Assembly: GCA_043228905.1 (NCBI GenBank)
Contig: JBHGNT010000014.1
Coordinates: forward strand, 5,394,001 to 5,458,000
DNA from: Azolla caroliniana
Lineage: Eukaryota > Plantae > Polypodiophyta
Length of the DNA stretch: 64,000 bases
Direction of reading: 5' to 3'
Shown here piece after piece: positions 2,207 through 32,450 of the stretch (its first letter is position 1; the number at the start of each line of letters is the position of its first letter). A program made the translations under genes and the position numbers. The notes under the pieces were generated by a model that was not told where the DNA came from, made no database searches, and was given only the letters and a program-made list of their open reading frames with translations.

Positions 2207-2216
2207 AACTCCCCCT

Positions 2217-5200: not shown

Positions 5201-6289
5201 CAGCCACACGTCTCCTGTGCCGGCAATCCGGCACGTACCTTCATTTCCCATCCGAACACAGCCATGCTCACCGGCTGTGTAGGATGAGAAGTATCTTCTC
5301 TCCGGGGTCAGGTGGAACGATGCTCCGGAATCGACCACCCAGGTCGTCTCATCGCCGGCAATGTTTAGTTCACCTTCTTCGGTGATGAGCATGATCTCCT
5401 CTTCACTTGCCGCGAGTGCCGTCGTTCCTTTCCGGTCCTGCCCTCGCCGATCCGGACCTCTCCGGTCCGTGGCTCCCCGGTATGCACCGTTTCTCTCCGG
5501 TGACTTCTTCGAATCGGTGTCGTCGGCTCCGTTGTCCTTTCGGTAATGCCGACAATTCTTTCGGAAGTGCCCCGGCTTCCCACAGTGGAAGCATGTGGGC
5601 CTTCCTCTTGACTGCGACCGGGTCCCCGACTTCTCCCGTCTTTGCGGACTCCGGTTCCGTTGTCTTCCCCGATCCGATTCGGTAAACAACATCTTCGGAT
5701 CGGAGGCCGGTTCTTTATCTCTCCGACGCGCTTCTTCGTTCAAAATACTTGTCTTTACCGTTTGTAGGGACAAGTTATCTTCGGTGCAGGAAGTGCTGAG
5801 AGTCACCACCAAGTTCTCCCAGCTTTCCGGCAATGTACACATCAGAATGATGGCTTGCATTGCATCCTCCAGCGGGAACTTGATCGCCGCAAGCTGGTTC
5901 ACGAATCCCATGAACGTGCTTACGTGTTCCACCATACTCTCGCCGTCCCGGTACTTGAGGTTCACTATCTTCCTCATCAGGGAGGTCCGGTTCAACGCAT
6001 TCTTCCTCTCGTAGAGGCCCGACAGCTTCCGCCACATCTCATATGCGTTGGTGTCGTTCGCCACATGTTGTAGAACGCTCACGTCGACGTATTGCCGAAT
6101 GGTTGCAACGGCTTTCCGGTTCAGAAGCCTCCATTCCGACTCAAGTACCCCCTTCGGTATTTCCGACCTGTCAATCGGTTCGTACAGGTCCCGAACAATC
6201 AGAAGATCCTCCATCTTGATCTTCCAGTCGGCGTAATTCTGTGCATTCAGCACCATCATCCCCGGCTGCCCGTTGCCGCCGCCTTCCAT
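2217..6289 (-). pseudogene. gag-pol: Copia A gag-pol polyprotein with one nonsense mutation (4724-4726) and one frameshift (~3730)
   Basis: CCHC knuckle CFHCGKPGHFRKNC, protease WVVDSGAS, GAG-pre-integrase LWHKRLCH, IN ELVHTDVC/RADNGGEY, RT LLYVDD, RNase H YCDSQSAI/TKHI. The sister copy at 61479-64000 has CAG at the stop position and an extra G at the frameshift. Confidence 0.93.
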
Positions 6290-6304
6290 TTTCTGCAGCA
6301 GCCC

Positions 6305-6316
6305 GCTCTGATACCA
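6305..6316 (-). promoter_or_regulatory. Primer-binding site (tRNA-Met initiator) of Copia A
   Basis: TGGTATCAGAGC 3 nt inside the 5' LTR boundary. Confidence 0.93.
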
Positions 6317-6319
6317 AAT

Positions 6320-6923
6320 TGATGGAAAATCAATCGACACTTTCCAAACTTCACCTCTCGGCCACAACCAAGGAAACACACGAATCGTTGTTGCAGAAAA
6401 TGGGAAATGCGAGAAATAGAGTGGACACACGATTTAACGTGGAAAACCCTGTACGGGAAAAACCACGGGAGTACAAGACTCCGAACCAAAACTATGCACA
6501 GAGAAATATACAATGGCGAGCTGCAAGGCGACGACCTTGAGCTCGTTGTCTTCGCCACAGGCGGCGGAAATACACAGAGGCGTCGACCTCTTCCTCTCTC
6601 ACGCTCTATCTCTCTCGCGGCTGCTCTCTCTTCACTCCTCTTGAGTGGAAAAACAGAAAAAATGATAAGCAACATAAAACTGTTTGCCCTAAGTCATATT
6701 TATACACATATGACTTTGGGGCTATTTACAACTATAGCCTCAAGGGCCCTTGGCAAACATATTCACAGATATGTCCCCGCATCCGGATCTCGCTCCGGGT
6801 ACATTCGTCATCCGGCTCCGAAGCCGGGGTCTTCATCATCCGGTTCCGAAACCGAAACCGGGCTTGTCGGCATTCATCTCCGATATCCGACCATCCCATC
6901 CGAAAGGGACAGTAATCCCAACA
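6320..6923 (-). repeat. 5' LTR of Copia A
   Basis: 604 bp, TG..CA, followed by PBS on the minus strand. Confidence 0.97.
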
Positions 6924-9476: not shown

Positions 9477-9876
9477 TGTAAATGATTACTTGCGGAAGCA
9501 TTAGAAAACAGAGAAAAGCAAAGAATACACAAAGTACACGGGAGAGACAGAGAGAGCAGAACGTACAAGCTATATTCAAAAACGATATAAACACTCTGTA
9601 GATACAACTGTGCTCAGTAGCACTATTTATACAAGTCCTCGTGGGACTGACAAAAGTACCGCGTACTTCAATGCTCACAGGAGAATCTGACACTTAATAC
9701 AAGACTATAACAACCTAGTAGTCTAAACTAATACTAGGCTTCCAGTTACCGATTGGATCCGGCTAATTGGCTCTGTTGCTTGCCAACTCGGTTGCTCACC
9801 GGCTTACCGATCCATCTCGCTTGACGGCTCAGGCTTATCCAACCGATTCGGCTCCAGTTGAGCTTGCTGCTCAACA
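9477..9876 (-). repeat. 5' LTR of Copia B
   Basis: TG..CA termini, adjacent PBS; homologous to the LTRs at 48104 and 51736. Confidence 0.88.
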
Positions 9877-12800
9877 TCCTATCCCTAGAGGATTTGATGA
9901 TCAGAGAAGTCCTCTATAGTGCACAAGTTGCACACACGTGGCTACTAAACTCTGGTACCACATTTCACGTGACCCCGAACATTGAATGGTTTTCGAACTA
10001 TTCAGCCGACGCCAACGACACAGTCCGACTAGGAAACGGGTAGGAGTGCAAGATAGCAGGAACTTGAGAAGTTCCCATTAGATTGTCAAATGGCAACATA
10101 ATAACCTTGCACCGAGTTCGGCATGTACCCGATCTAAAGAGGAGTCTGGTATCCATCAGGATGTTAGCAGAAGACGGGTACAAAACGACTCTACACAAGT
10201 TGACATGGGTGATCAGCCGAGGAAACCTCAAAGTCGGGAGTGGGTACAAGTACAATAATCTATACCCATTGATGGCAATCAACCATGAAGGGGCCATGGA
10301 CGTAGCCGAAAAGACCGACCCAAACCTATGGCATGGTCAACTAGGCCATATGTCACAAGCCGGACTTGATCGGCTGATGTCGATTGGCTACATTCTGAAA
10401 CTCTAGGCAAAGACTGACTTTTGCAAGCATTGTCAATATGGGAAACAGACCTGAAGTCCACACTCTCTCCACTATGAGACGATACGACAACCCCTAGAGC
10501 TCGTGCACACAAACATATGTGGGCCCATGCCAAAACGATCACTAGGAGGCTCCCGGTATTTCATCACATTCGTAGATGATTGTACATGGAAAGTTTGGGC
10601 ATACTCCATCAAGTCCAAAGATGAAATGCTGGAGGTCTTCACTCGATGGATATCTGAAGTGGAGAACCAGTCGGGATACAGAGTGAAGACACTCCGATCC
10701 GACAACGGAGGTGAGTACACCTCTAGAGCCTTCAAACAGTACCTGCCAGAAAAGGGATCCGACACCAAAAGAACGTTCCTTACACACCCATGCAAAATGG
10801 AGTGGTAGAATGGATCAATAGGACGATCCAGGAGAGGGTGACGACAATGCTTCAGCAAGCCAGACTGAAGCTGAAATTCTGGGCTGAGGCATTGTAGATG
10901 GCAGTGTACCTGATAAATATGGTGCTATCAAGAGCAATCAGGCTCGAAGTGCCACAGGCACTATGGTCAGGCAAACAACTGACTTACGATAGGCTCCGTA
11001 TATTCGGATGCAAAGTCTACACGTTCATCCCCAGGGACAAAAGGACGAAGCTGGCACCTCATGCAACGACGTGCATATTTCTCAGTTATGGAACCGATGG
11101 GGACTTCAAATACCGGCTATGGGACCCTGAGAACTGGATACTGATATGGAATAGTGACGTGGTCTTCAATGAAGACTCTATCTTGTCTCAGAAGAACCAA
11201 CAGAAAAAAGTTGGTAAGAAGGTATCCTTCGAAGAAGATAGAACTGTCGTAGAAGGACTGTCCCACAGGGCCGAATCAGAGAGTCAACAGACAGTTGAAC
11301 TCCAACTAGCTGACTACTTCCCTGCCGACACTGAATCGGCAACAAGTTCCATTGTCGAACTCAAAGACAAAGTCATCAAAGGCATAGCCAAATCGACAAG
11401 GATCGATAAAGGCAGAGGCACCAAGAGGCAAGTCATAAAAGAGTCGATGACACCCACAGAGGAGAACAACCAGACACTACCGAAATCCCAAACAAGACTC
11501 CTGATACATATGGTTCAACAAATACCGATTTTCTAACATAATCGATTGAAGGATCCTAACCTAACATCTCGGAACCTAGGAGATCTAGACGAGCTCGAAG
11601 GCAAACAAACTTCTATCAACCAGGCCTCGACTACGTCAACTACACGGATGCTGGCGAACCAAGCACGTATGAAGAAGCTATGGCCGCACCGGATGCCGAA
11701 ACATGGCTACAAGCCATGAAATCCGAGATGGACTCGATTCACTAGAATCAGACATGGGAGCTAGTCGAACTACCATCAGGAAGAAAGCCACTACCTTGCA
11801 AATGGGTGTTCCGATACAAGTATGTATCCGACTCAGAGAAACCCAAGTACAAAGCTCAGCTTGTCGCAAAGGGATTCAAACAGGAATACGGGGTCGACTA
11901 CGACGAGATATTCTCACCAGTAGTCAAGATGACCACCCTCCAACTCCTATTAGGAGTTGTGGTGACAGAAGCTCTCGAGCTCAAGCAGATGGATGTAAAG
12001 ACGACATTTCGACACGGAGATCTGGAAGAAGACATATACATGTCTCAACCGACAGGCTTCATGGTGACGGGGGAGGATAGTCACCTCGTATGTCGACTAA
12101 AGAAAAGTCTATATGGCCTCAAACAAGCGACGAGGATGTGGTACCAGAAGTTTGACTCCTACATATGGCGGCTTGGATAAAACAAATCAGACTCCGACCC
12201 ATGTCTATATGTTCGACAATTGGCCGATGAGTCCAGGATCTATCTGATCCTATATGTCGATGACATGTTGATTGCAGGGAGCAATCAAGTAGAGATCGGT
12301 AAGCTCCACGCCTTCACGCAAAGTTCATGATGAAGGAACTAGGACAAGCCCGACACATATTGGGCATGAGGGTAGAGCGAAATCAGACAACCAAAACTCT
12401 CCGACTCTCCCAGTCCGAATACATCTACAAGGTGCTAAGGCGCTTCAACATGGAGAATGCGAAGCTAGCACGGACACCGCTTCCAACGTCGATTAGACTA
12501 TTAGACAGAGACTCTCCTTCAATGGACAAGGAGAGAGGGCTTAATGGAAAGATACCCTACTCATTGGCTGTATGAAGTATCATGTACGCAATGGTGGCGA
12601 CCCGACTCGACCTAGCCTATGCCGTAGGGGTGGTCAGCTGGTACCTGTCAAACCCAAGAAGGAATCATTGGGAGGCCATCAAGCACATCCTTAGGTATCT
12701 AAAAGGAACCACGATTGCACAACTGACTTTCGGACTGACAACCTCAGCTGAAGTCGAAGGCTACACTGATTCTGACTATGCTGGAAATACAGATAATCGG

Positions 12801-13220
12801 AAATCGACATCAAGCTACATCTTCAGCTATGGTGGCGGTGCAATATCATGGAGGTCAAAAATTCAAGAGTGCATGACTCTATCTACCACAAAAGCCGAGT
12901 ACATAGCAACATCGGAAGCAACTAAGGAAGCGATCTGGCTGCACCGACTGTCTGCTAACTTCGGAACTACAAGCCGAATTGATCAAACAACGCTGACCAT
13001 CTATTGTGACTCACAGAGCGCAATACACCTCATCAACAATCTCATCTACCATGCGAAGACGAAGCACATTGAGGTGCAGTATTATCATATTCGGGAGTTT
13101 GTGACCGAGAAGAAGCTCGATGTCCGGAAGATCGACACCGAGGTGAACATCGCCGATTGCGTGACAAAGCCACTCCCAGATCAACGCTTCGGAACACTAA
13201 GGATGAAGATGGGACTCTGA
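9877..13220 (+). pseudogene. pol: Degenerate Copia element C pol (PR-IN-RT-RNase H); 5' part separated by the B insertion
   Basis: WLLNSGTTFH, LRSDNGGEY, QMDVKTTF, YVDDML, GYTDSDYAG, YCDSQSAI..KTKHIEV across fragmented ORFs 9858-13220. Confidence 0.9.
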
Positions 13221-13399
13221 CAAGCGACCAAGCAGAAGAAAGCTGAACGAGGAGTAGCAGGTAAGAGCTGATCGACATTCATACTATATGTCTGCCGACT
13301 CGGCTACTTGCCGACAGACTTGTAACAAAAAACCTAGTTCAATTTTGTAACCTAGGTTTATGGGGGAGATAACCCTAAGCACTTGTATATGTATGAAAG

Positions 13400-14788
13400 A
13401 GTAGTCCTTTTACGAGGGCATGAAGTCTACTCTACCGTAATGGGAAGGTTTGTGTTCCAGATTTACCCGAGGTCAAAAAGAGGATTCTTTTTGAATGCCA
13501 TGATGCACCCTTAGCAAGGCACCCTGGAATAAATGGTACACTCGTTCTCATCTCCACTCAATTTTATTGGCCTAAGATGCGTCGTGACATACATAGCTAT
13601 GTGACTAAATGTCACCAATGTCAGGTTAACAAAGCCGAGCGACTTAAAGCCGCAAGACTTTTACATCCCTTGGACATTCCCAATAATAAGTGGGAAAGTA
13701 TATCCATGGATTTTATTGTTAGCCTTCCTCGCACCCAAAAAGGCCATGATGCCATCTGGGTTGTGGTTGATCGACTAACTAAAATGGCCAGATTTATTGC
13801 TACTAAAACCACGGTAACAACTCCTGAATTGGCTTTCCAATTCGTGGACAAGTTATTTCGTTTTTATGGGTTACCGATGGATATCGTGAGTGATCGAGAT
13901 CCAAAATTTACTAGTGACTTCTGGACGCAAGTCTTTAAGAAGTTAGAAACTATGTTGAGCATGAGCTCCACGGATCATCCTCAATCTGATGGACAAACAG
14001 AACGAGTAAATCAAATTATTGAGGACATGCTTCGAGCATATGTTGGTATAAAACCAACAAAATGGGAACGTTACCTCCCAATTTTAGAGTTTGCTTATAA
14101 CAGCTCCAAGCATACGTTGACGGGATATAGTCCTTTTATGTTGATGTATGGTTTTCAGCCACGAGCCTCGATTGATGTTAATATACATCATGATGAGTTG
14201 CGAAGTACACAAAACTTTCTTCGGGATATGCAAGATATGTTGCATATTGCACGAGATAATATAAGAACAGCTCAAGATAGAGCGCGTTTTTATGCCGATC
14301 ATCGTAGGCAACCTCGTGTATTCAACCCTGGACTGAAGGTATTTTTACGTGTAGCTCACAATTCTAAGACATTGTCTACGGGTAAGTGCGCTAAGTTAGC
14401 CCCACGGTTTTGTGGACCTTTTACAGTCCTCAAATGCATTGGGTCATCAGCCTATCGTCTCGCTCTTCCCGATGGTGTTGAAATTCATCTAGTTTTTCAT
14501 GTGAGTCGTCTAAAAGAACTTCTAGGTTCTGGCGACAATACAGTTACAACTGAAACTTTGGTTACTTCTGAAGAATTATCTTCTAAACCACATGTACCAG
14601 AAAGAATTCTCGATGTTAAAACAAAAAAATTACGTACTAAAGAAATCCGAGAACTTAAAATAAAATGGATGGATAAATCAATAAAAGATGCCACATGGGA
14701 ACGCGAAAATACTCTCAAAACTAACTTCCCTAACTTTCCATTGCAAGAGTGCAATGTTTTAAAGAGGGGGAGTATGTTACGGGCATGA
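13400..14788 (+). pseudogene. pol: Chromovirus (Ty3/Gypsy) integrase with C-terminal chromodomain, element D, 5'-truncated
   Basis: ORF 13577-14788: CHQCQ zinc finger, ISMDFI, IVSDRD, SDGQTERVNQ, GPF motif, PERILD..KIKW..DATWE chromodomain; PPT AAAGAGGGGGAG at 14761-14772. Confidence 0.92.
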
Positions 14789-15193
14789 CCATATAATATC
14801 CCGTGGTGAGAATTTACCGGAGTATTCTATACACGTGGATAAGTGTGAGGGTTAAATGAGAGTGTAAAGAAGGGGAAGATTACTTTTAATCCTTGGGATT
14901 GAGACAACCCATTAGGCCAAGTGTGAACTTGCCTGGGGGCCTTGGGTATCACTATAAATAAGAGGCCTAGCTACCCTCATTGGATCATCTTGTTGACTAT
15001 GTGGAGACTCTGTCTTGTGGTGGGTCAACTCTTGTAGGGGCGCCAACACCAGGTACGACTCGACGCCATGGCGGTGGTATGGGACGCCGATCAAGGCTCG
15101 AGTCTGTCTTGATCCCTTCGCTCGGGGGTGGTCGGGCGGATCAACACCCTTCTCTCTCTCTCTCTCTCCTTTCTATCGATTGATCTATATTCT
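14775..15193 (+). repeat. Chromovirus D 3' LTR, left part (continues at 32408-32450 after the Sola insertion)
   Basis: Starts TGTTACGGGCATGACC after the PPT; remainder ends GTCTCTAACA at 32450. Confidence 0.92.
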
Positions 15194-15563
15194 GGGTGAA
15201 AGCATGAGAGTGGAAACAATTAGCTATGTCCTTGACATAGCTAATTAGCTATGCAAAATGCTACGATTGATAAATAGTCATTTTAGTAAAAAGCGATCAT
15301 TAATAAATTAACTATGCGAAAAACTACCATTGAAAATACTAGAGTGTTTTAATTACATATGTAAATGAGTGCCATAAATGTGCAACATAAACGCACAACA
15401 TAAATTGATATGTGCACCATAAATGTGTACCATAAATTATATATCGAATTCCTAGGTCCATTATGCATGATTCTTTGCCACATCACGTAGGCCATCTCTA
15501 GTTGAGTATTGTGGGTTAGTTGCTACCACTGTTGCTAAACCCTATCGAGTCCACCTGCCGTGA

Positions 15564-15918
15564 CTCTACACTCAGGGGCCGCTACCGTGCGTTCCAAGCA
15601 TCATCAAAGAGCTGTTCAATCTGATGGGGTTCTCTTCTCTGTGCCACTCTACACTCAGGGGCCGCTACTGTGCGTTCCAAGCATCATCGGTAACTGTTCA
15701 ATCTGATGGGGTTCTCTTCTCTGTGCAACTCTACACTCAGGGGTCGCTACTGTGCGTTCCAAGCATCATCGGTAACTATTCAATCTGACGGGGTTCTCTT
15801 CTCTGTGCTACTCTACACTCAGGGGCCGCTACTGTGAGTTCCAAGCATCATCGGTAACTGTTCAATCTGACGGGGTTCTCTTCTCTGTGCCACTCTACAC
15901 TCAGGGGCCACTACTGTG
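15564..15918. repeat. 82-bp tandem repeat (4+ copies, degenerate copies to ~16240) in the left subterminal region of Sola
   Basis: Unit CTCTACACTCAGGGGCCGCTACTGTGCGTTCCAAGCATCATCGG... starts at 15564, 15647, 15729, 15811, 15893. Confidence 0.93.
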
Positions 15919-17189
15919 AAGGTCGTGTATTGCTGCCACTTTTTGACCCGACGGCGTTAACAACTCCACTGCCGCCATTCTACTCTCAGGTGCCTTCTCT
16001 GTGTGTTCCAAGCATCATCGGTAACTGTTCAATCTGATGGGGTTCTCTCCTCCATTGCCATCATTCTACACTCAGTTGCCGCTACTGTCCAGTCCTGGAT
16101 TGCTTCCACATTTCGATTTGACGGAGTTCACTCATCCAACGGCAACATTCTACACTCAGTTCTCGCCATTGGTCGGTCCTGGATCGCCTCCTCAACTGTT
16201 CGATCCAACGGAGTGAACTCCTCTACTGTTCGGTCTTGGATTGCAATAACTTTTCTGTCTATTGATTATCTTGTGTATTGTTGTGTCTAATCTTGTGTAT
16301 TGTGGAATATTTTTGTGTATTGTTGTTGCCCATAGCCATCTTAAATACTTGTTTTTTTTTCTGGAAATTTAGGGTTTTAATATGTCCAACCAAATGGAAG
16401 GGGAAGAAGGGTGTTTAGAATTACCCCTCAATGATCATAAGGATAGGGATGATGCTATCAAGACACAACAAGCCATACGAAACTATTGGGTAGAAAAAAA
16501 AGGAAACATCGTCAATTGTTGAAGGATACGAAAGCCACACTCAATAAAGGTAAGGATAGTTTAGATGAGAATGTAAGTAATGCGACTACCATCATAGAGA
16601 GAAAGGTTGTAGACTATTTCAATGTTCAAACCAAGCACATCAGCAATGAAGAAAAGAAGGTAGTACTTTATGGAATATGTAATGATCCATCGATAAAGGA
16701 CTTAGTTGATTGTGATGGTCTTAATGCAAACATATCATCTATTTTAGTAAATAATCTTCGTAATAGTTTCGTATCCATGAGCAGGTCAGAAGATGATATT
16801 GTCTTAAAAAGGTCTAGTCTAATGATGTTACTTAATAGTGATGTTGACGATATAAACATCAGTGAGCTATCTAAGGTAATTGGTGTTAGTAGAAAAACAG
16901 TGTACAATACAATGAACCGTATAATTTCCTCGGGTGAAGGAACTAGTCTACTAAAGCTAACTACAAGATGTAAGCCAATGACAGCCATAACATTTGAAAT
17001 CAAGGATGTAATCACAATGTTTTGGACTAATGAGAGTAGGGTTTCACACAATAAAAAGGATTTATGCAGGAAACGTGTTGGAAGAAATCAATACGAGGAG
17101 CATCCCATTCATCTTCTTGATGTACCTCAGGTATTTACATTTATCTCAACATTTGTTTTGACTCTACACGGAAAGTTAATTAGCTCAGT

Positions 17190-17778
17190 TAGCATAAAAG
17201 CTAATTAGCTTATCAGTTACATTTACCTCAGTTAGCTACTAGGATAGCTACTACATAGGTAACTGGCTACTCTCAATAGCTACTCCCATGATAGCTAATT
17301 AGCTATTCTCAATAGCTAATTTAGTTACTACCAGATAATTAGCTACCAAAATAGCTAACTAGCTACCATGATAGCTAATTAGCTATTCTCAATAGCTAAT
17401 TTAGTTATTACCAGATAATTAGCTACCAGAATAGCTAATTAGCTTTTAGGACAGCTAATTAGCTATTAGAATAGGGTTTTACCTACCATGATAGCTAAAT
17501 AGCTATTGGAATAGGTAATTAGAATAGGTAATTAGAATAGGTAATTAGAATAGGTAATTAGAATAGGTAATCAGAATAGGTAATTAGCTAATTAGCTATT
17601 AGAATAGGTAATTAGCTACCATGATAGCTAATTAGATACTATGATAGTTAGCTACTCTAGTTATTACCAACTAATTAGCTACTAGGAAAGCTAATTAGCT
17701 ACCATGATAGCTAATTAGGTACTAGGACAACTACTATGATACCATGATAGGTAATTAGCTACTAGAACAACTAATTAG
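17190..17778. repeat. Array of the palindrome TAGCTAATTAGCTA (transposase intron, left part)
   Basis: Many copies of (T)AGCTAATTAGCT(A) with short spacers, plus a 13-bp AGAATAGGTAATT sub-repeat. Confidence 0.95.
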
Positions 17779-18222
17779 TGTTAGGAAACAGGTCCCTCCG
17801 GATGGGAAGGGAGAAGAACAGTGCTGATGAGCAAACTCGGCCGAGGCCGAAACCGGATGAGGAGTACCCGGATACGGAGAGCCGGATGGTGCAGACCCGG
17901 TGAGAGCCGGATGAGGAGTACCCGGATACGGAGAGCCGGATGGTGCAGACCCGGTGAGAACCGAATGAGGAGTACCCGGAAATGGAAGACCCGGTGAGAA
18001 CCGGATGGCAAGTACCCGGCAAGCGCTGGATGATGCAGGCCCGGTGAGGAGTGCTCACCGGATGAAGAGGCATATTCGTAAATATGTTTCTGAGAGTCTA
18101 TTGAGGCTATATTTGTAAATAGTCGAAAAGTCATATTAGTATAAATATGACTTAGGGCAAACTTATTGTAGTAGTGGTTGTCATTCTTGTTGGTGCAAGA
18201 AGAGAGAGCGCGTAACAGTGTA

Positions 18223-18263
<41 letters not shown>

Positions 18264-18564
18264 AGAGTTCGCATCTCTATTGTAACCGCCGACTGTGGCG
18301 AAGATAGCAAGCTCGAGGTTGTTGCCTTGGTGCTCCACCATTGTACATTCTTATATAGTGATAGTTTGGAGTCTGTGGACTCCCGTGGTTTTTCCCTCTC
18401 AGGGTTTTCCACGTTAAACATCCTGTGTACTCCTCTCTCCTTTAAGTCGTGTGTTTCATTTCCCGTTTTTTGTGTATGAGTCTAAGCTCGGCTGTGGCCG
18501 AGCGTTGCGCATAGGGAGCATGTAGTTCCCGTCAAATTGGTATCAGAGCGAAACGACACAGAAA

Positions 18565-21500
18565 ATGGACGAATCGTTGGGCGGCATGTTCAAGCTCACC
18601 GGCTCCAACTATTCAGTGTGGAAGTCGAAGATGAGGGACATGCTCGTGGTTAAAGATCTTTGGTTGTTGGTTCAGTTTGGGGACAAGAAACCGGACAAAA
18701 TCGACGCCACGATATGGGAGGTGATGCACATGAAGATAACGGTGTACATACGGTGCTTCATCGACATGAGCCTATACAACAACTTCAATGAAGAGAGCAA
18801 GGCTCATGAGCTCTAGGAGAAGATCGGCATTATGTTTCAGAACAAAAATGTTGTTAATCAGGTTTCGGTATTCCGGAATCTAGTAAGACTCCGGTACCAA
18901 GATGGCTCCAACATGGCGGAGCACATGAATGCCTTCCAGGGGCTGATACACCAGGCAACATCATTGGAAGTACCTCTCGCCGATGACGTACTAGCACTAC
19001 TCCTGATCGGTTCCCTCCCGGATCGCTGGGAGACGTTGGTTGTCACTTTGGGCAACGCCGGGTCGGAAGGAAAACGGTTATCCCTAGCAAGAGTGAAGTC
19101 GAGCTTCCTAGATGAGAAGACGCGTCGGAAAGATAAGAATACAAGCTCCGACTCCAAAGCGCCCCTTACCGAATTGGAATGCGGAAGACATAGAAACCGT
19201 AGTCCCCAGAACCGGGAAAAGTCGGGGACACGGTCAAAGTCAAGGGGGAGGCCTACTTGCTTCTATTGTGGCAAGCTGGGACACTTCCAGAAGAACTGTC
19301 GGCATTTCCGAAAAGACAAGGAAACCAACGGTACCAATTCGAAGCGGACACCAGACCGGAACGGTAAAGACCGGAGGGGGCCAGATCGGAAGGGAACGAC
19401 GGCAATCGCGGCAAGTGAAGAAGAGTTGATGCTCATCACCGAGGAGAGTGAGATAAACCTTGCCGATGACGAGATGACCTGGGTGGTCGACTCCGGAGCG
19501 TCGTTCCACCTTACCCCGGACCGTAAATACTTCTCATCCTACACAACCAGTGATCATGGTTGTGTCCGGATGGGGAATGAAGGTACATGCCGAAAGTCAA
19601 GGGGGAGGCCTACCTGCTTCTATTGTGGCAAGCCGGGACACTTCCAGAAGAATTGTCGGCACTTCCGAAAAGACAAGGAAACCGATGGTACCGATTCGAA
19701 GCGGACACCGGACCGGAACGGTAAAGACCGGAGGGGGCTGGACCGGAAGGGAATGACGGCAATCGCGGTAAGTGAAGAAGAGTTGATGCTCATCACCGAG
19801 GAGAGTGAGCTAAACCTAGCCAGCAACGAGATGACCTAGGTGGTTGACTCCGGAGTGTCATTCCACCTTACCCCGGACTGGAAATGCTTCTCATTCTACT
19901 CAGCCGGTGATCACGACTGTGTTCGGATGGGGAATGAAGGCACATGCCGAATTGTCAGCAGAGGAGACGTGTGGTTGACAACACCAACCAGATGCAAGTT
20001 GCTGCTAAAGGATGTCCGACACGTTCCGGAGGTTCGCCTGAACCTGATATCAGCCGATGGGCTAGATGAAGAGGGCTACACGGGTAGCATCCGGAATGGA
20101 GTCATGAAGTTCAGCAAAGGGAGCCTGATCGTGGCTCGGGCCCAGAAGGTCAATACGTTGTACCTGATGAATGCCTAGTTATGTCCGGAGGAAGTGAACG
20201 TGGCATTCGACACTGCCGGTGAGCTGTGGCAGAAGAGGCTGTGTCACATGAGCGAGAAGGGGATGAAGAGGCTTGCTGACGACAACCTCATTCCAGTGAA
20301 GAATGTGCACTTGGAGAAGTGCAATGATTTTCTAGCCGGTAAACAAAACCGAACCTCCTTCCGATCAAGGCCACCAATGAGACGTAATGCGCCACTGGAG
20401 TTGGTGCATACAGATGTATGTCAAGTGGATACGAAGTCACATGCCGGATCACAGTACTTCGTGACGTTCATAGGTGACCACAACCGGAAGCTGTGGGCCA
20501 CACCGTTGAAGACGAAGGATCAGGTGCTATCTGTTTTCAAAGAGCTCCACGCGAGAGTGGAAAGAAAACCGATTGGAAGCTGAAGGCGGTTCGAGCAGAT
20601 AACGGAGGTGAATACTGTGGGCAGTTCAAGGAGTACTGTCGCTCGAAGGGAATCCGGCTCGAATTTACCATGCCGAAGATGCCGGAACTAAACGGGCTGG
20701 CCGAGAGGATGAACCGGACCATAATGGAGAGGGTCCAGAGTATGCTGGCACATGCAAAACTACCCAAGAAGTTTTGGGCTGAGGTGCTGTCGACGGCGAC
20801 ATATGTGATAAACAGATCACCTTCAGTACCCTTGGATGGAGACACGCCACAGAGAGTCTGGACCGGTAAGGAAGTGTCCTACCGGCATCTGAAAGTATTT
20901 GGGTGTCTTGCGTATGTGCATGTAGCTAAGGGCCGGAGAGGAAAACTAGATCCGAAGACCCGACCATGCATATTCCTCGGTTACGGCGACGATGAGTTCG
21001 GCTACCGAGTGTTGGACTTGGTCGACAAGAAGGTATTCCGGAGTCGAGATATTATCTTCATGGAGGACAAGACGCTCGCCGACTGGGAGTCAGAGAAGAA
21101 GATAATGAACTCCGAGTTGACCGGTAAGGATCGACTCTATGATGAGCAGACCCAACCGGCAAGAGACAGGTTAGCACTCGAGGGACCAACTGGTTACGGT
21201 GAGGATACCGAACAGGCTGAAGAAGAAGTAGAGGAAGCTGAAACCGGAATCGGCCAAGACCCCGAATCGGATTCGGATGAAGAGCAAATGGAGGAGCCGG
21301 TTACCGAAGCCCGAAGATGGAGATATCCTCTCAGAGAGAGAAGGCCCCCCCCGGAGATTTCCGGATGGAGAGCATGTTTTGTTGACCGATGAGGGGGAGC
21401 CGGAAAGCTTCGAAGAAGCGAAGGATGACACCCACATCCGCAAATGGTGGATTCCCTGCATGAGAACCATACGTACGAATTGGTGGAGTTGCCGAAAGGA

Positions 21501-22940
21501 AAGCGGGCACTCCGAAACAAGTGGATGTACAAGTTGAAATCGGGAGATGCTGGCAACCCCCCGAGATACAAAGCCAGGATTGTGGTGAAGGGGTTCTAGC
21601 AGAAGAAGGGAGTGGACTTTGACGAGATATTTGGCCCGGTAGTAAAGATGACCTCCATCCGAACGGTGCTGAGTATAGCGGCAAGCATGGACCTCGAGGT
21701 AGAGCAGCTGGACGTGAAGACGACATTCCTTTACGGTGACCTCGAAGAGGAGATCTACATGCAACAACCGGAAGGATTCGTTGAGAAAGGGAAGGAGCAC
21801 TTGGTTTGCCGGTTGAAGAAGAGCCTGTACGGACTGAAGCAGGCTCCCCGACAATGGTACCGGAAGTTCAACTCCTTCATGACCAATCAAGGGTACCACA
21901 AGACGCAGGCCGATCACTGTGTGTTTGTGAAGAAGTTCGAGGGAGGTGACTTCCTGATATTCCTTCTGTACGTGGACGACATGTTGATCGTCGGACGGGA
22001 CCAAGCTAGAATCCGGATGTTGAAGAAGGCTCTCAACCAGACCTTCTCAATGAAAGACTTGGGTCCGTCAAGACAGATGTTGGGGATGCATATCATCCGG
22101 AACCGGACAATGAAGCAATTGTGGTTGTCACAGGAGAAATACGTGACAAAGGTGCTTCAGCGGTTCAACATATCAGATGCGAAACCGGTCGGATCGACAC
22201 TTCCGGCAAACTGTAGGTTATCCGGTAAACAAAGACCGAAGACGAAAGCAGAGAAGGCGGATATGATGAAGATTCCATATGCCTCTGCCGTCGAGAGCTT
22301 AATGTACGCAATGGTGTGTACCCAACCGGATATAGGATACGTAGTCGGAGTGGTGAGCCGGTTCATGAGCAATCCCGGCAAGGAGCATTGGAACGCGGTC
22401 AAATGGATACTCCGGTACTTGAAGGGCACTTCGCATATGTGTCTCCGATTCGGCTCCGGAAAACCTCAACTTGACGGTTTTACGGATTTGGATATGTCGG
22501 CTGATGTGGATACCAGCCGGTTGTGGGTATGTAATGACATATGCAGGGTGAGTTGTTTCATGGCAGTCGAGGCTGCAGAAGACGATTGCGTTGTCAACCA
22601 CGGAGGCGGAGTACATGGCGGCTGTGGAAGTCGGCAAGGAAATATTATGGATGAAGGACTTTATCGGAGAGCTCGGTATCCGGCAAGATGAATACCGACT
22701 CTATTGCGACAGTCAAAGTGCCATCCACCTTGCTAAGAATGCGGCCTACCATTCCCGGACGAAGCATATTCAGTGAAGGTATCACTAGATCCGGGAAATA
22801 GTAGATGACTAGGAGTTCGCGCTGACGAAGATCCACACGGTCGAGAATGGGTTAGATATGCTGACCAAAGTACTGATACCTGACAAGCTGGATGCATGCC
22901 GGAAGCGAGTCGGACTAGTAAGACATCCCATGCCAGAGTG
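18565..22940 (+). pseudogene. gag-pol: Copia E gag-pol (multiple stops and frameshifts, internal 357-bp duplication)
   Basis: Two CCHC knuckles, WVVDSG, ELVHTDVC, RADNGGEY, LYVDDM, YCDSQSAIHL. Confidence 0.92.
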
Positions 22941-23100
22941 AAGGGGGAGTTTGTTAGGAAATAGGTCCCTCCGGATGGGAAGGGAGAAGAACAGTGCTGA
23001 TGAGCAAACTCGGCCGAGGCCGAAACCGGATGAGGAGTACCCGGCTACGGAGAGATGGATGGTGCAGACCCGGTGAGACCCGGTGAGACCCGGTGAGACC

Positions 23101-23460
23101 AATGATAGCTAATTAGCTATTCTCAATAGCTAATTTAGTTATTACCAGATAATTAGCTACAAGAATAGCTAATTAGCTTTTAGGACAGCTAATTAGCTAT
23201 TAGAATAGGGTTTTACCTACCATGATAGCTAAATAGCTACTAGAATAGGTAATTAGAATAGGTAATTAGCTAATTAGCTATTAGAATAGGTAATTAGCTA
23301 CCATGATAGCTAATTAGATACTATGATAGTTAGCTACTCGAGTTATTACCAACTAATTAGCTACTAGAAAAGCTAATTAGCTACCATGATAGCTAATTAG
23401 GTACTAGGACAACTACTATGATACCATGATAGGTAATTAGATACTAGAACAACTAATTAG
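23101..23460. repeat. Duplicated copy of the palindrome-array flank (copy of ~17368-17778)
   Basis: Colinear with 17368-17778 and ends in the same junction CAACTAATTAG|TGTTAGGAAAC. Confidence 0.9.
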
Positions 23461-23956
23461 TGTTAGGAAACAGGTCCCTCCGGATGGGAAGGGAGAAGAA
23501 CAGTGCTGATGAGCAAACTCGGCCGAGGCCGAAACCGGATGAGGAGTACCCGGATACGGAGAGCCGGATGGTGCAGACCCGGTGAGAGCCGGATGAGGAG
23601 TACCCGGTTACGGAGAGCCGGATGGTGCAGACCCGGTGAGAACCGGATGAGGAGTACCCGGATATGGAGAGCCGGATGGTGCAGACCCGGTGAGAACCGG
23701 ATGAGGAGTACCCGGAAATGGAAGACCCGGTGAGAACCGGATGGCAAGTACCCGGCAAGTGCCGGATGATGCAGGCCCGGTGAGGAGTGCTCACCAGATG
23801 AAGAGACATATTCGTAAATATGTTTCTGAGAGTCCATCGAGGCTATATTTGTAAATAGCCGAAAAGTCATATTAGTATAAATATGACTTAGGGCAAACTT
23901 ATTGTAGTAGTGGTTGTCATTCTTGTTGGTGCAAGAAGAGAGAGCGTGTAACAGTG

Positions 23957-23998
<42 letters not shown>

Positions 23999-24270
23999 CG
24001 AAGAGTTCGCATCTCTATTGTAACCGCCGACTGTGGCGAAGATAGCAAGCTCGAGGTTGTTGCCTCGGTGCTCCACCATTGTACATTCTTATATAGTGAT
24101 AGTTTGGAGTCTGTGGACTCTCGTGGTTTTTCCCTCTCAGAGTTTTCCACGTTAAACATCCTATGTACTCCTCTCTCCTTTGAGTCGTGTGTTTCATTTC
24201 CCGTTTTGTGTATGAGTCTAAGCTCGGTTGTGGCCGAGCGTTGCGCATAGGGAGTGTGTAGTTCCCGTCA

Positions 24271-24670
24271 ATTAGCTACGAGGACAACTAATTAGCTACT
24301 AGGATAGCTAATTTCGTTATTACCAACTAATTAGCTACTAGGAAAGCTAATTAGCTATCATGATAGCTAATTAGCTACTAGGACAACTAATTTGCCACCA
24401 TGATAGCTAATTAGCTACTAGACCAGCTAATTAGCTACCATGATAGCTAATTAGCTACTAGGAAAGCTATTTAGCTACCATGATAGCTAATTAGCTTAGG
24501 ATAGCTAATTAGCTACCATAATAGCTAATTAGCTACTAGGACAACTAATTAGCTACTAGACCAGCTAATAAGCTAGTAGAACAGCTAATTAGCTACTAGA
24601 ATAGCTAATTAGCTACTAGAATAGCTAATTAGCTACTAGGATAGTTAGCTAGTTACGAGAATAACTAATT
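24271..24670. repeat. TAGCTAATTAGCTA palindrome array (transposase intron, right part)
   Basis: About 20-bp periodic units such as CCATGATAGCTAATTAGCTACTAGGA, running up to the splice acceptor. Confidence 0.95.
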
Positions 24671-26876
24671 CCCCTTTATTACGCAGGTCGATTTATTTAT
24701 TAGAATCAAACGAATGCATCCAAATATCAAAGTTCAACTACGAACATTCGAGTCTCTTAAGCCACACTTTGTGAGATGCCTAAAGGATCGATACACATGT
24801 TGTTGCATTTACCATGTACATATGGGTTTTCTAAAGGACTCTGTTAATCTACTACGTCACCATAGCGCATCCCTAACTATTACAGTTTGCACATGTGGGT
24901 GCCCAATCTGTCGATCAAGCCCGCAAGAGGAGTGTAAATCATTTGAGCACGTTATCTCTTCCATGAGTTATTTATTAGATTCAATATTGTGTCCGAGAGA
25001 AACTGACGCTATCTTCCATAGTCATAAATGTGTCATGGGTTTATGTCAAGATTGTGGCCCTACTAGATTTAGGTGGTGTCCAAATGAATTGAGTAGTGAA
25101 ATATTGATCTCTGTGAAGTTATTTGAGTCAATGAACACCAATTTCGAAGGAAAGGTGTGTAAAAGAAAGGATCTAGTTCGGAAGATGCTTAAACCAAGGG
25201 ATTTGGTGTGTCAGTTTGTAATATCTCTAGGAAAGTTCATTAAACACAACTTCATTTATTCATGGCAGGCTCATCAGTTTAAGACTTGCATATCTGATTT
25301 CCCAAATGATGTAGTAGGCTCAGTAGTAGATTTCGCAGAGAATTATACTTTCAAGCAGCAGAATGAAATTCAATCTATGCATTGGTGTTCAGTTCAGGTA
25401 ACCATTTTTGTGCACATAACATATTTTCGAGTTTCAGGTGATGTTAAAAAAGTAATTCATTTCTTTATTTCTGATGATAAGAAGCATGATACCTTGTTCG
25501 TCCAACACTGTTTTAAGTTACATTGGTAGTGGTTATTAGCTTAACATTTGGAGCTTACTCAACATTGGGTCTGGTCTGACGGAGCTGCGTCACAATTCAA
25601 GGCTCGACGTCCATTTTATTTTGTGGGGAGGTATCTTGCTATAACAGGTTTGGAGATGAGATGGAAATTTTTTGGGTCTGGCCATGGTAAAGGTGAACAT
25701 GATTGTGCAGGGGCTATTATAAAGCGGGCACTTACCCATGAACAACTAAAGACAGATAGTGTGCACATGAATTGTGCATCATATGTAGTTGAATTTTTAA
25801 GAACAAATATGTCAACGAGTGCAACAGGTGTTTATTCCTCGCAAGTCCGAGATATCAAACGTGAATTTTGGGAAGTGAAGATAGATGAAGTAAATAGGGA
25901 GAAGACCTGGGAGTGCCAAGGAATTCCCGAATTGTGATCTCTACATGCTGTTCGCGGTTATTCCAGGTTGGATGGTCATTGTATTGCGGTTAGAGAATTG
26001 ACTTGTTTTTGCTTCCATTGTGTGCAGGGAAATTGGAGATATTGTCTAAACAAAGCATACATTCAGAATTGGGAGTATCACACTCTGAATGATAAGGAAG
26101 CAGTTGATGGAGAAACATGGCAGAATGCTGACTTCACATATGAGGGACTTGGAGATACTTTGAGTGATGTCCTGAACGTTGGGGATAACTTCGCTGTAAA
26201 TGTTGAAGAAGGCAATTCAGAGGGTGTTGATTTCTATATATTGAAGTGCACGGTTAGTAAACAGTGTGCAAGGCAGAATATTGTAGATTCATGGGGAAAT
26301 TTTGTATCTGCCGGGACATTCTACATCGAAGGCATTTTTTATGCAAAACTAGATGACTACGAATATGTGTACAGGCTGTTAGAAGACAAACTAGTGGCGT
26401 ACATGTACTCTCATTTGGTTAGGTGCATCAATGTCCCAATGTCAGAATACAATAGCTGCTCAGGTTTATACACTGTTGGTGCTAATGTGTATGAATGTAT
26501 TTACAATAGTATGCCATGGAATTTGTAGCTACAAGTAGCAATTACCATGTTCTCTTGTAAAACAAACATGTATTTCACGAAAATAGTTAAATAAATTCCT
26601 TTGAGAATCAATTTCTTGTATACAGTCTGCTTTCTATGCTTCTTTCTCAATAAAATCATGTCTTTTTTGTTAAGTTTTAAGTTATAAGTTATAGCGAAAT
26701 AGCCATCAGTAGCTAATTAGCTGTACAAATGCAGCTAATTAGCTGTCAATAGCTAAATAGTCATCAATAGCATGAAATCAACAATCTGCAACATATTCCT
26801 CAAATTACACAGTAGATAAGTATAGTGGGAACAAGTAATTAAATTCTTCATTGAATAATGTCATCTCTTTACATAT

Positions 26877-29800
26877 TTATAAATTACCATTGGAAATGTC
26901 TACAAATCTCCTATAAACAGCTAAGCTCTTGCTAGTCAGTGGAACGAGTCTACATATATTATCCGCATATCGAGCTCGGTATGGAGTCCACAACCATGCA
27001 CCAACCCTAAACCCTAAACCCTGTTCAGGCATTTCCTCGGGTAGAATGAGACAACATCTCCGAATATTGAAGTAGTGCCGGAAATTTTCTATATCCAAAA
27101 TCAATGTGTTGTCGGCATTATATTCAGGCCAAGTAGCCCAAAAATCAGAAAGTCTCTTGAATCTTGCAGCTTCCATTTGCTCACAATTTTCTCGTGCCCA
27201 TTGACCTTTAAAATGACTTCGCCAGTTTGGGAAGAATCTTGCTAAATACTTCCACACATCTGATTTTGGTTTTTCACTCCAAATAAACAAATCAAAGTAT
27301 TGCACAACCCACTCTAGAAACTAATTCGCGTCCCTCCTTGGCTGCATATATCTCACACTCATCAAGACTTTATCAAGCTCCAAGATCAAGGCTCTTCTTT
27401 TGACTTCTAGTGGTTTAGGTTTCCATTCCTGAAACTGAGCCGATGTTACACCATTTTCTGGTAGGACACGATCAATCTCAATCAGCTTAGGTTCGGCCAA
27501 CACAACTGGCGTCCTTTTCCTCTTCAAACCCCTAGTCGACTGTGTTGGGCCTGGCTTCACATTTTGGTGCTCTTGTTTTGTGAACTTAGTTATCAATCCT
27601 TGGATTACCTCGGTGCATGTAGCTACTGATCTGCTCGATATTAGTCCACTGGTATCACATGCTGCATCTACTTGCAACATCAAGTCATCCGTGCAACATG
27701 CTGCATCTACCTACAACATCAAGTCATCCGTGCAACATGCTTGATCAACTTGTGTGACCAGATCACTTGTGTCAGTTGCTACATCTACTTTCAAGATGGG
27801 GCCCTTTAAACACGCCGCAACATCAACAGTATCTACACTGCCATTGGCCTTACGGGCAATAGAATCAAACCCTTTAGACTCTGCAACATAAGAAAACACC
27901 AACATATTCACACTCACAAAGGAACTAATAGTCTCACAAAACAACATCCTGAACATCAAAGAGTTTCAGTCATAGAACAACACTCTTCAAATTATCTTGG
28001 AAAAACATCATAGAGTTCCATTACATAATGTGGATCAAGCAACAACCAATCTGAGGTTTTACTTGTCCAACAGGATGGTAAAACTTCATAAAATCCTAGC
28101 AAAATCCCTAAGCTAAGAATCATATCCAACTAAATAGTATTTCGCTCCACTACATCTGGGCCCCTTGACCGAGTAACTGGTCTTGTTCTCGCTCGTGGCC
28201 CCTTCTTCAGCCTTTTTCTGGTCGGTTGCCCATTTAGCCTTGCTTCTTTCACCCAATGCGCAAGTGTGTCCTCCTCTGACAACCTTCCCATCGCCTCAAT
28301 AGCTAATTGCACATCGGCCGTTTCTTGCGCTAGCTTTTCAAGCACAGAGGGATCTGTTTGGACATTTTCAGTAGTTGGGCTCGGTTTAGTGCAATCAAGG
28401 TCTTGAGATTCGAAGAAATGTTGCATCAAGTGTTCATAAACACTGTTGTTGTGAACCTCAGTTTTACATGTTGTTTCCACTATTTCATGGCATTTCACAT
28501 CGTTGCCTAATTTAGTACACTATTCCAAAAGAATAGGGTGGAGCTGATCTAAAGGAGATGTGATAGCGGGACTCTTACTTTCAGCCACGTTGGCAGCAAT
28601 ATCCTCATCTGTTGCAGCGTCATCAGCATCAGACACATCATGTGCCGTCCTTAATCCACAAGATTCTACAATAACATGGCAACTATTTAGGATAGCTAAT
28701 TAGCTACTTTACTAAACTATGGTAGTAGCTAGGATAGCTAATTAGCTACTTTACTAAGTATGGTAGTAGCTAGGATAGCTAATTAGCTACTATGGTAGCT
28801 AATTAGCTACTTTACTCAACTATGGTAGTAGCTAGGATAGCTAATTAGCTACTTTACTCAACTATGGTAGTAGCTAGGATAGCTAATTAGCTACTTTACT
28901 CAACTATGGTAGTAGCTAGGATAGCTAATTAGCTACTTTTCTCAACTATGGTAATAGCTAGGATAGCTAATTAGCTACTTTACACAACTATGGCAGTAGC
29001 TAATTAGCTAGTAGGATAGCTAATTAGCTACAATGATAGCTAATTAGCTACTTTCTCAACTATGTAGTAGCTAGGATAGCTTATTAGCTACTAGGATAGC
29101 TAATTAGCTGCCAGTAGCTAATTAGCTACTAGGATAGCTTATTAGCTACTTTACACAACTATGGCAGTAGCTAATTAGCTACTAGGATAGCTAATTAGCT
29201 AGTAGGATAGCTAATTAGCTTTTTCACACAACTATGGTACTAGCTAATTAGCTAGTACCATAGCTAATTAGCTGCTACTTTACACAACTATGGTACTAGC
29301 TAATTAGCTATGAGTAGCTAATTAGCTGCTAGTAGGATAGCTAATTAGCTAGTAGCTAACTAGCTGCCACTTAACTAATTAACTACTGTAGTAAACTATG
29401 GCAGTAGCTAATTAGCTAATAGGATAACTATTAGCTGCTTTAATCAACTATGGTAGTAGCTAATTAGCTACAACGATAGCAACAAAATAGTTTCCATACT
29501 TTTTACGGCTTAACTAATTAGAAAAGACTAAGCTTATTAGCTACAATATGGTATACCTGTTAGTTTTCTCCACTCATTTGGTAGAGCTGTACTACAATCT
29601 CCCAAACAGAATGCAACAATTTGACAGGCATGTTGAAAACAAAGCAGATGGTATGTGTGGTTGCATGGTTGTAGGTGAACCAACAAAGATGTAGTTTTGT
29701 CCTCCACACCTAACGCAACAGAGAAATTTACCGATTAATTATTCCTGTCTGAGAAAGATACACCAACTTTGCTCAGGAATCGTTAACTTACTTGAAGCTT

Positions 29801-31490
29801 TTCCAAATTCTAATCTGCAATAGTATTTACACCTAGAAGGTCCAGGTTCATTGAAAGAACTTGGATCTCTATTTGCAGTTGTATTTTACGCTGGGGATCC
29901 AGTGGCCCCTCTAATTCAAGCTCCTATTGCGCAACCTATTCCAGATAATGCTTGATTAGCACATTTTACCCTTAAAGTTATTTATAACACAATCACATAC
30001 CAACAAAACAATAGTTACCTGAATCTTATTTATAATCGTTGTAACAACGGAAGTAACTTTGCTCTCCATTGCAGAAGCCATTGTGGCTTTCTCTAAATTA
30101 GTCTTAAAAAAGGCCAATGTCTCATAGGCTTCATGGACATTTTTTAGCATATAGCTAACCAATGTCTCACCTGTATCATCAACATTGGCTTTCCTTGGGT
30201 GTCGGTGTGGTGTATGCCCCCGGTGTCGTAGTGTATTTCGTACACTACGTGAAAAAGTAAAAATAATATAACCGATTTAATTACATATAAATAAATAAAA
30301 TAAGAATATCAAGATATTTATCACGTGCATAGGGCAAGATTTGAACCCTGTACCTCCACGTAGCCAAACCTCAACTTTACCATTATACTACCTTATCTTT
30401 AGTGTTCTATAAATAGATTTAATAACTATAAGTGCTTTATTTGCGCCTACCTTTATTAAAAGGTAAATCGTGCATTTTTAGAGTGTGTGAATATTTTATA
30501 GAAAAAACGCAAGCAACTAAAAAGTGACTCGTGCACATCTAGTGTGCATGAGCACTATATTTAGCAAATAAAAGCAAGGATTAGAAAAGCATCACATGCA
30601 TATTTAGTGTGCATGAACATATTAGAAAAAAAGCATGTAGCTATGCTTAGTCTCTCCCATCACTACATAAGGATGGGGAGCACAATGTAATAGGGTGTGA
30701 AATATTTGGAAATTGGATATATTTCCGAAAACACCAACCGATTAATATAATCGTGGGATTCACGAAAATAATATAATCTATACTTGTGGGATTCACAAGT
30801 TTCTTATATCTTTCTTTCAATCTAAATACATATTCTTATCTAAATATTGATTAATCGAATACAATACACTCGTGGGATTCACGAAATTTCTATCTCTCTT
30901 TCTAATAATCTATTCATTACTAGCCTCATCTCATATTCTTCTTTCTCCTAGTCCAAAACCTCGGCGGTTCCCACCCGACTCACGCAACGATCCGGAGCCG
31001 AAAGGCACGACACCGGTTTTGCTGGGAGTCGGCAGTTGCATCAACAACTGCCATGCTCCAAAATCTGTCTATTTTTTGTGCCAAGGTCCCCATCTTTTGG
31101 CATCTTTTTACCGATGCCTCACCATAGACTGCCCAAGCTACCCTATACATTTCAGGGTCTCTGGATTCCTTCACTATTTTGCAGTACTCATATGCAAATG
31201 CTCTAGCAAATGAAACTGACAACTCATTGTTGACTGGGATCTCTTGATGAACTTTCTGGTGCAGCCTCATGCAGTCATCGTACAAGTCAGCTCGTACATG
31301 CTTCAGCTTAACCTTGCCTTTGACTCTAGCCACTGCATATACTGTCATCCAGTTTACATCACTGATCAATTTATCACTTAGGTCAGCAGGGTCAACACCC
31401 TCGAGTGATAGACCATAGGTGTTGTGGAAGTCCTCCTTTGTCTCGCAAAATTTTGCGAAGTTTAGCACTCTCGGATACGGAGGAACGAGC
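26877..31490 (-). pseudogene. Multi-exon accessory gene of the Sola element with a C-terminal FCP1/SCP (NIF, HAD-like) phosphatase-homology domain
   Basis: ORF pieces 30980-31468, 29956-30162, 28130-28665 and 26877-27880 (one frame, TAG stops at 27711 and 27321). Minus-strand donors GTGAGT ~30983, GTAAC ~30019, GTATAC 29556; acceptors TTGTAG 28666 and TTGCAG 27881. Motifs KRRALILELDKVL, FLEWVVQYFDLFIWS, YNADNTLILD. Confidence 0.62.
28680..29545. repeat. Second TAGCTAATTAGCTA array (42-bp higher-order unit) inside predicted intron 28666-29556 of the accessory gene
   Basis: AATTAGCTACTTTACTCAACTATGGTAGTAGCTAGGATAGCT repeats at 28801, 28843, 28885 and onward. Confidence 0.95.
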
Positions 31491-31544
31491 CATTTGAAAT
31501 ATCATTTATGAAATAAGAAATAGTGCAAAATCAGAATATGTCAG

Positions 31545-32020
31545 AATCAGAAACCCCAATCAACAACAGAAATAGTGCAAAATCTTTAACTTAGCAAATC
31601 AAAAACCCTAATCATAATTTGTATTCAGAAATTTGAAATTAGAAACCCTAATCAAAATCTGTAATCAGAAGTTTGAAATTAGAAACCCTAATCAAAATCT
31701 GTAATCAGAAGTTTGTAACTAGAAACCCTATACAGAAATTCTAATCAGAAATTTCAATCACAAACCCTAATCAGAAATTCTAAACAGAAATTTATAAACA
31801 AAAACCCTATTCAGAAATTCTAATAAGAAATTCTAATCAGAAATTCTAATCTGTAATCAAAATTTGTAACCAGAAACCGTATTCAAAAATTCTAATCAGA
31901 AATTTATAATCAAAAACCCTAATCAGAAATTTCAATCACAAACCCTAATCAGAAATTCTAACAAAAAATTTATAAACAAAAACCCTAATCAGAAATTTCA
32001 ATCAGAAACCCCAATCATCA
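31545..32020. repeat. AT-rich tandem array containing repeated telo-boxes (AAACCCTAATCAGAAATT)
   Basis: About 10 AAACCCTA-like motifs interleaved with TCAGAAATT units. Confidence 0.85.
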
Positions 32021-32450
32021 CTAAAGACAAGATTAAACACAAAAAAAGTAATATAAACACACCTGCTGCTACTCCCCGATCTGCGAGACATCCTTGTATG
32101 GGACTCTAAGGACTTCGCCCTATTCAATTTTGGGGAAATATGAATCGGCACCAAAGTTCAGACAATAGTCAAAATGAATCGGCACCAAAGTTTGATGACA
32201 TTGAAGTCGACCTTAGATGATGATGCTATTCCCCAAGTTCCACTACGTCTGAAATAGAAGTTCAAATATTTGAGTTTTTTCATAAATTGGTTTTTCAAAT
32301 ATTTGATTTTCCCACAAAAAAGACAAGCTAAACAAATAGCTAATTAGCTATGGCCATTTTAGTAGCTAATTAGCTATAATAGTGTTTCCACTCACATGCT
32401 TTTACCCTTCTATCCTTATCTAATGCTTACATTAGTCTATGTCTCTAACA

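Follow-up and report, generated by a model that had tools for sequence, protein, structure and literature searches.

A two-gene Sola2 transposon of Azolla caroliniana with a convergent accessory gene and intronic palindrome arrays

Sola transposases carry out DDD cut-and-paste transposition with a 4-bp target duplication, and the Sola2 DNA transposons, reportedly described by Bao et al. in 2009, have ends that follow a GRG rule. To our knowledge, sequence-specific counter-silencing by transposons has been shown for only a few angiosperm families. In this work, a Sola2 element at 15194-32407 of a 64-kb window of the Azolla caroliniana genome (the whole stretch analysed; contig JBHGNT010000014.1, positions 5,394,001 to 5,458,000) was investigated together with its relatives. 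It carries a transposase gene, a second gene converging on it (gene 2) and arrays of the 14-bp palindrome TAGCTAATTAGCTA. Sola elements have been reported as repeat classes in moss and ferns, and they are rare among active plant clusters with terminal inverted repeats (TIRs) (PMC12973397). Sola2 elements with Fanzor1 were described from the amoebae Dictyostelium fasciculatum and Polysphondylium (PMC3627910, file S11), and Sola1-1_Ec32 of Ectocarpus carries a ParB-methyltransferase (PMC12477816). The premise of an earlier note on this DNA, that Sola2 consists mainly of elements with a single open reading frame (ORF) outside land plants, is weakened by these moss and fern reports and by the known two-gene Sola elements. 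A plant Sola2 accessory gene of the present kind was not described in the literature searched, outside which lay Repbase and subscription papers. The two-gene Sola2 lineage is apparently undescribed, and its architecture is well supported. The lineage keeps the convergent gene 2, and we tentatively propose, with slightly less than an even chance, that its protein would bind the element's own arrays and keep the element transcribed against host silencing.

The element was bounded by 25-bp TIRs identical at 23 of 25 positions, the left one (15194-15218, plus strand) starting with GGG and the right one (32383-32407, minus strand) ending with CCC, which fits the GRG rule. The target-site duplication (TSD) TTCT was present on both sides (15190-15193 and 32408-32411). 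Both flanks aligned to one unbroken copy of the host sequence at 42075-42140 in the window, with a single TTCT near 42110, and this empty site shows that the 4-bp TSD is genuine. The exact TIR and TSD boundaries given by the earlier note were thus borne out. Its 17.2-kb span was correct as to the boundaries and not as to a single unit, since a copia retrotransposon (6.5 kb) and a 789-bp insert sit inside. With both removed, the bare unit is about 9.9 kb (10717 less 793).

The element has the testable features of Sola2, namely the DDD motifs, the 4-bp TSD, the TIRs and the GRG ends. In a comparison by eye, the transposase motifs (DFxENY, Q.EIQS.HW, SD...HD, SDG.A.Q.K and HGK..CDG.G) matched the Sola2 alignment of PMC3627910 (file S10), and short TIRs and an AT-rich 4-bp TSD are likewise shared, so that the earlier assignment to Sola2 held. 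The transposase of about 860 residues was predicted on the plus strand from two exons. Exon 1 (16382-17130) had a weak helix-turn-helix (HTH) match and a frameshift near its start, where the close transposase relative L001 was open. Exon 2 (24687-26528) encoded a Cys-rich region and the DDD core, with Asp codons at 25329 (DFAENY), 25578 (SDG) and 25701 (HGKGEHD), and contained three in-frame stops. No splice junctions were found in the contigs of runs X20 and X21, which are RNA by guess only, and this result is silent on expression. Of the spliced DDD transposase claimed earlier, the DDD gene with two exons on the plus strand therefore stood, its splicing is a prediction and this copy is broken. 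An open relative with 93% identity heads a 34-member cluster. The named transposase matches came from Calypogeia, Taxus, Cryptomeria and Adiantum, and the more distant ones were thrips and rotifer proteins. Both genes are broken in the window, and this copy is a dead member of a many-copy Sola2 cut-and-paste family.

Gene 2 was predicted on the minus strand, with its product ordered as an N-domain of ~140 residues, a coiled coil, a RING-like finger, an acidic linker and an FCP1/NIF domain. The predicted exons, whose structure is approximate in this copy, were exon 1 (29 nt, 32063-32091), exon 2 with the N-domain and coiled coil (30019-31493), an exon 3 region of maybe two exons with the end of the coiled coil and the RING-like finger (29557-29935), a linker exon with an uncertain 3' boundary (28130-28665), and the last exon with the end of the linker and the HAD-like FCP1/NIF domain (26877-27880). 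Exon 2 is split by the 789-bp insert and has a mutated acceptor. The multi-exon minus-strand gene of the earlier note is therefore present as a prediction, though broken here by stops and the lost splice acceptor.

The RING-like finger of this copy consisted of the second half only (CxHxxHxxC, 29698-29564) and matched profiles made without this copy at E-values of 1e-9 and 7e-9; in several relatives it looked complete, with eight ligands. The FCP1/NIF domain scored 24.4 bits against the Pfam NIF cut-off of 21.8. Its motif I was ELDKV at 27380. This motif was ELDK in all six covering members of the window's family (ELDKV was conserved in P0102-P0105), and DLNG or DMNG in the Adiantum proteins and locus L003. 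Since the catalytic Asp of DxDx(T/V) is missing, the domain is likely inactive as a phosphatase. The N-domain had 131 relatives among cluster representatives and a confidently predicted structure (predicted local distance difference test score, 90.6). The Adiantum proteins had a domain order identical to that of gene 2, and the 11 source-species names obtained for gene-2 relatives were all Adiantum. NIF was found in 3 of the 61 relatives scanned, and the RING profile was matched by 10 of 124 N-domain relatives.

A metagenome scan yielded 79 loci in 57 transposase clusters, of which 26 had at least 4 kb of downstream sequence. A related convergent gene was present in 17 of these 26 distinct clusters (N-domain in 11, RING-H2-like finger in 15, NIF in 1), down to about 30% transposase identity, and shorter loci beyond the 26 added NIF (L003) and RING (L011). 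In every case the N-domain lay downstream of the transposase, at a distance of 4.1-8.4 kb and on the opposite strand; none was found upstream, despite 15 clusters with at least 7.5 kb of upstream sequence. All 23 RING-like rows, from the 15 clusters and L011, were on the minus strand and downstream; since iteration makes the E-values of this RING profile circular, strand and position served as the control. NIF was convergent to the transposase in L003 and L077. Leave-one-out E-values of the N-domain ranged from 1e-5 to 6e-30, and the profile-profile match of the distant with the window type was 97.6%. No relatives were found in viral contigs. GRG ends with a 4-bp TSD were found in 0 of the 79 loci, and no convincing ends emerged when 18 long loci were searched under relaxed criteria, so that the distant two-gene units are only putatively TIR-bounded. 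The fixed downstream, opposite-strand position in distant relatives marks gene 2 as a regular part of the lineage.

A phylogenetic tree of 45 loci representing the 57 clusters was constructed with FastTree from database matches only. The N-domain label was unclustered on it (7 changes against a shuffled mean of 7.5), in line with a wide spread and with truncated loci. The NIF exon stayed open across subfamilies ~70% identical, a result reached by 0 of 400 neutral simulations. Neutral simulations kept the shorter N-domain open in 5-12% of runs, so the argument from its retention is weak. Protein searches also favour open frames.

In DNA runs with four coded organism labels, thousands of contigs covered every bin of the examined stretches, which were the transposase with the 3' half of gene 2 (X1, X14) and the 5' half of gene 2 (X1, X2, X15). 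The gene-2 exons were covered alongside the transposase in all bins, and the listed stop and splice lesions were minority alleles. No contig of the DNA runs spanned both genes. The longest contigs of P0150 and P0169 were equal (10576), which is suggestive of linkage only; within-family linkage thus rests on the window and these matching contigs. Gene 2 as a one-off captured host fragment in neutral decay would suit its broken state here and its degenerate catalytic motifs. This candidate was rejected on the same position and strand in the 17 distant clusters, the frames kept open across subfamilies and the minority state of the lesions; it is largely refuted, and we regard it as extremely improbable.

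Two relatives had further ORFs in this region. In L077, a NIF exon (12464-12862, minus strand) lay nearer to the Sola2 transposase, and an ORF (16378-17049, minus strand) lay 6.4 kb downstream of it. The latter had no Pfam match and resembles ParB on inspection by eye; L077 possibly carries ParB plus NIF cargo. In L066, a candidate B3 DNA-binding domain (11895-12293, minus strand; E 6e-6, below cut-off) lay downstream of the transposase, beyond the RING exon.

The palindrome TAGCTAATTAGCTA had 63 matches with at most one mismatch in the window, against 0.02 expected. All of them lay between 15238 and 32376, and 53 remained when the span of the nested copia, which holds a duplicated part of the array, was excluded. 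At up to two mismatches, all 79 matches were within the element and none in predicted exons. Motif search placed one full copy beside the left TIR (15238-15251, with a partial copy just upstream) and two beside the right TIR (32337-32376). Arrays occupied the first half of the transposase intron (17173-17761, mostly at 20/40-bp spacing), its second half (24285-24635) and an intron of gene 2 (28693-29524), and degenerate copies lay between the convergent genes (26692-26763). Gaps near 20 or 40 bp made up 13 of 16, 15 of 15 (the second intron half) and 18 of 27 in three arrays. The earlier observation of one palindrome arrayed in an intron of each gene and beside both TIRs was accordingly confirmed, with the motif element-only and non-exonic. 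A tandem-repeat scan also revealed an array of 82-bp units in the 5' leader (15563-16088, plus strand), and an AT-rich array (13/40-bp unit) was located in gene-2 intron 1 (31597-32008); both are palindrome-free, and each gene has one of them close to its 5' end.

A transposase intron at a similar position was present in many relatives, and 18 of 25 introns longer than 300 bp held tandem repeats. Tandem repeats covered 21% of the transposase introns and 3.7% of the loci elsewhere, an enrichment of about six-fold, and the array motifs differed by family. Downstream, the intron motif was found again in the window and in L002 and L005 (rank 1 of 19), and likewise in L003 by direct motif search. 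The likely left end of L002 started with GGG and had the motif near it. The arrays could also be neutral minisatellites that slipped from a terminal motif, gene 2 being a selected counter-defence protein that acts off the element, perhaps as a ubiquitin ligase that targets silencing factors of the host. In line with this, array units and spacing vary, the intron repeats of distant loci have no motif in common with the rest of the element, and the RING-H2-like finger was detected more widely than any other module. The 14-bp core, on the other hand, is pure where the spacers differ between the two introns (20-bp and 42-bp units), and the repeats are concentrated six-fold in a single transposase intron across families. 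We therefore consider neutral slippage with an off-element gene 2 improbable.

A VANC-like role, in which gene 2 would protect its own element, is the best reading and an inferred one. The transposase HTH would likely bind the ends, and the DDD core would cut and paste with a 4-bp duplication. Recognition of the family motif is likely the task of the compact N-domain, which would probably dimerise through the coiled coil; a dimer would suit a palindrome every 20 bp, which is about two helical turns. Once the element is bound, its host-protein targets would likely be engaged by the tail modules: ubiquitin transfer would be recruited by the RING-H2-like finger, whereas the FCP1-like domain, whose catalytic Asp is missing, would be a binding or decoy module, for example for the tail of RNA polymerase II. 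The arrays would grow by slippage, since self-recognition would strengthen with the number of sites, and the motif would change together with the protein from family to family, as described for VANC. A wider form of this proposal is an ancient, undescribed self-recognition system of land-plant Sola2 elements, in which a new DNA-reading domain (a remote VANC/PMD cousin or a new fold) co-evolves with intronic arrays and carries swappable effectors (RING ligase, FCP1-like decoy), giving anti-silencing independent of Mutator VANC and Spm TnpA. We regard this wider form as conceivable and rather doubtful.

Several results weigh against recognition of the arrays by gene 2. In a Pfam scan the N-domain had no match, and neither it nor its relatives matched DUF1985, DUF287 or PMD. 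Its structural likeness to VANC21 was at noise level and, with a second model, outside the top 50 of 126 rows. Its charge is balanced and not basic (21 K+R, 20 D+E), and in the window's family the RING lacks the first Cys pair and the NIF domain the nucleophile. The second gene was undetected in 9 of the 26 clusters with at least 4 kb downstream. Transposase and N-domain distances correlated over 12 pairs (r 0.49, p 0.0004), which speaks for retention of gene 2, but the correlation weakened to r 0.40 (p 0.08, 7 pairs) with one locus per close group. For 12 more distant loci whose introns carry repeats, the motif failed to rank top downstream, and a repeated 9-mer was absent from 4 of them; the use of one motif in several non-coding regions characterises the close clade only. 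Finally, the motif also adjoins both TIRs, so the transposase could be the binder, and binding and activation of its own copies is within the reach of a transposase by itself (bioRxiv 10.64898/2026.08.24.746577).

The palindromes may accordingly be sites for the transposase that are required close to the ends for cutting and have spread inward to allow self-activation, with gene 2 a cofactor acting via the transposase or chromatin, like MURB for MuDR. At both ends of the element the motif occurs no more than about 70 bp inward, and L002 also has it close to its left end; exon 1 has the HTH match, transposases can be sequence-specific activators (bioRxiv 10.64898/2026.08.24.746577), and MURA binds MURB (PMC12973397). 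However, only 3 of the 53 sites are terminal, and nearly all lie in two introns far from the ends, one of them inside gene 2. The intron-poor group (L017, L018, L020, L028, L034) also speaks against this, having a gap of 10-16 bp at the intron position and no array intron, and in the L034 cluster, a single case, gene 2 was not found in 5 kb. L017, L018 and L034 grouped with Taxus and Cryptomeria proteins in the tree, and the group possibly represents a lineage that has neither arrays nor an accessory gene. We rate inward-spread transposase sites as rather unlikely.

The nested Ty1/copia retrotransposon (17779-24270, plus strand, TSD ATTAG) splits the array of the transposase intron; in L001 the intron array was present and the copia absent. 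Within it, 17368-18534 and 23102-24270 (array piece plus long terminal repeat (LTR)) were 97-98% identical, likely a product of repair or unequal crossover. The LTR at 22952 is truncated and followed by a copy of the upstream array piece and then a full LTR, and a further 357-bp duplication was found at 19236-19951. The 789-bp TG...CA element (30224-31012, short inverted ends, TSD CCGG) within gene-2 exon 2 was skipped in DNA contigs of three runs and may be a solo LTR or a small DNA element. In runs X1 and X2 its summed depth exceeded that of the Sola2 exons several-fold; read depth here does not equal copy number. The surroundings (1-15193 and 32408-64000) are made up of LTR retrotransposons nested in one another, several of which are related to the copia inside the element.

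An accessory gene conserved to 30% transposase identity, with fern relatives, would, if the anti-silencing role is true, widen the silencing arms race to include a further superfamily as well as plants that lack seeds and have very large genomes. With many families, different motifs and one shared domain, the co-evolution of motif and protein is directly testable, and the system would be a natural library of re-targetable DNA binders if self-recognition is true. A group of 'hypothetical' Adiantum genes that contain N-domain, RING and NIF parts likely belong to transposons and have been annotated as genes of the host.

Compared with described Sola2, the lineage of the window stands apart as a land-plant clade, by its conserved intron and intronic arrays, and by the convergent N-domain/RING/NIF gene. 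Sola2-Fanzor1 likewise combines a Sola2 transposase with another gene located in its 3' half; its cargo is TnpB-like Fanzor1, unrelated to gene 2, and arrays are not mentioned in the available part of the source. Sola1-1_Ec32 likewise has an accessory gene on the opposite strand, for which an action on the element's own chromatin is proposed, and differs as a Sola1 element with ParB-like plus DNA methyltransferase cargo. FCP1/SCP phosphatases (NIF, PF03031) share with gene 2 the Pfam NIF match above cut-off and differ in the catalytic motif I. PP7L, the partner of MAIN/MAIL1, is an inactive phosphatase. The PMD proteins MAIN/MAIL1 resemble gene 2 in having a helical domain that transposons carry and that is associated with DNA motifs and, putatively in gene 2, with anti-silencing, and PMD is reported to be structurally similar to DUF1985 (bioRxiv 10.1101/2024.09.27.615353); the N-domain differs in having no PMD match by sequence. 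From VANC of the VANDAL and KIU types, which belong to Mutator-like elements of Arabidopsis, gene 2 differs in its Sola2 carrier, its lack of DUF1985 and DUF287 by sequence, its palindromic motif and its inferred function. Shared with VANC are an accessory gene with family-specific tandem motif arrays in non-coding DNA (clear here in the close clade only), the placement of those arrays in introns, intergenic and terminal regions, and the fusion of a core domain to a captured enzyme domain, Ulp1 in VANC and NIF or RING in gene 2 (PMC5735166, PMC13317346).

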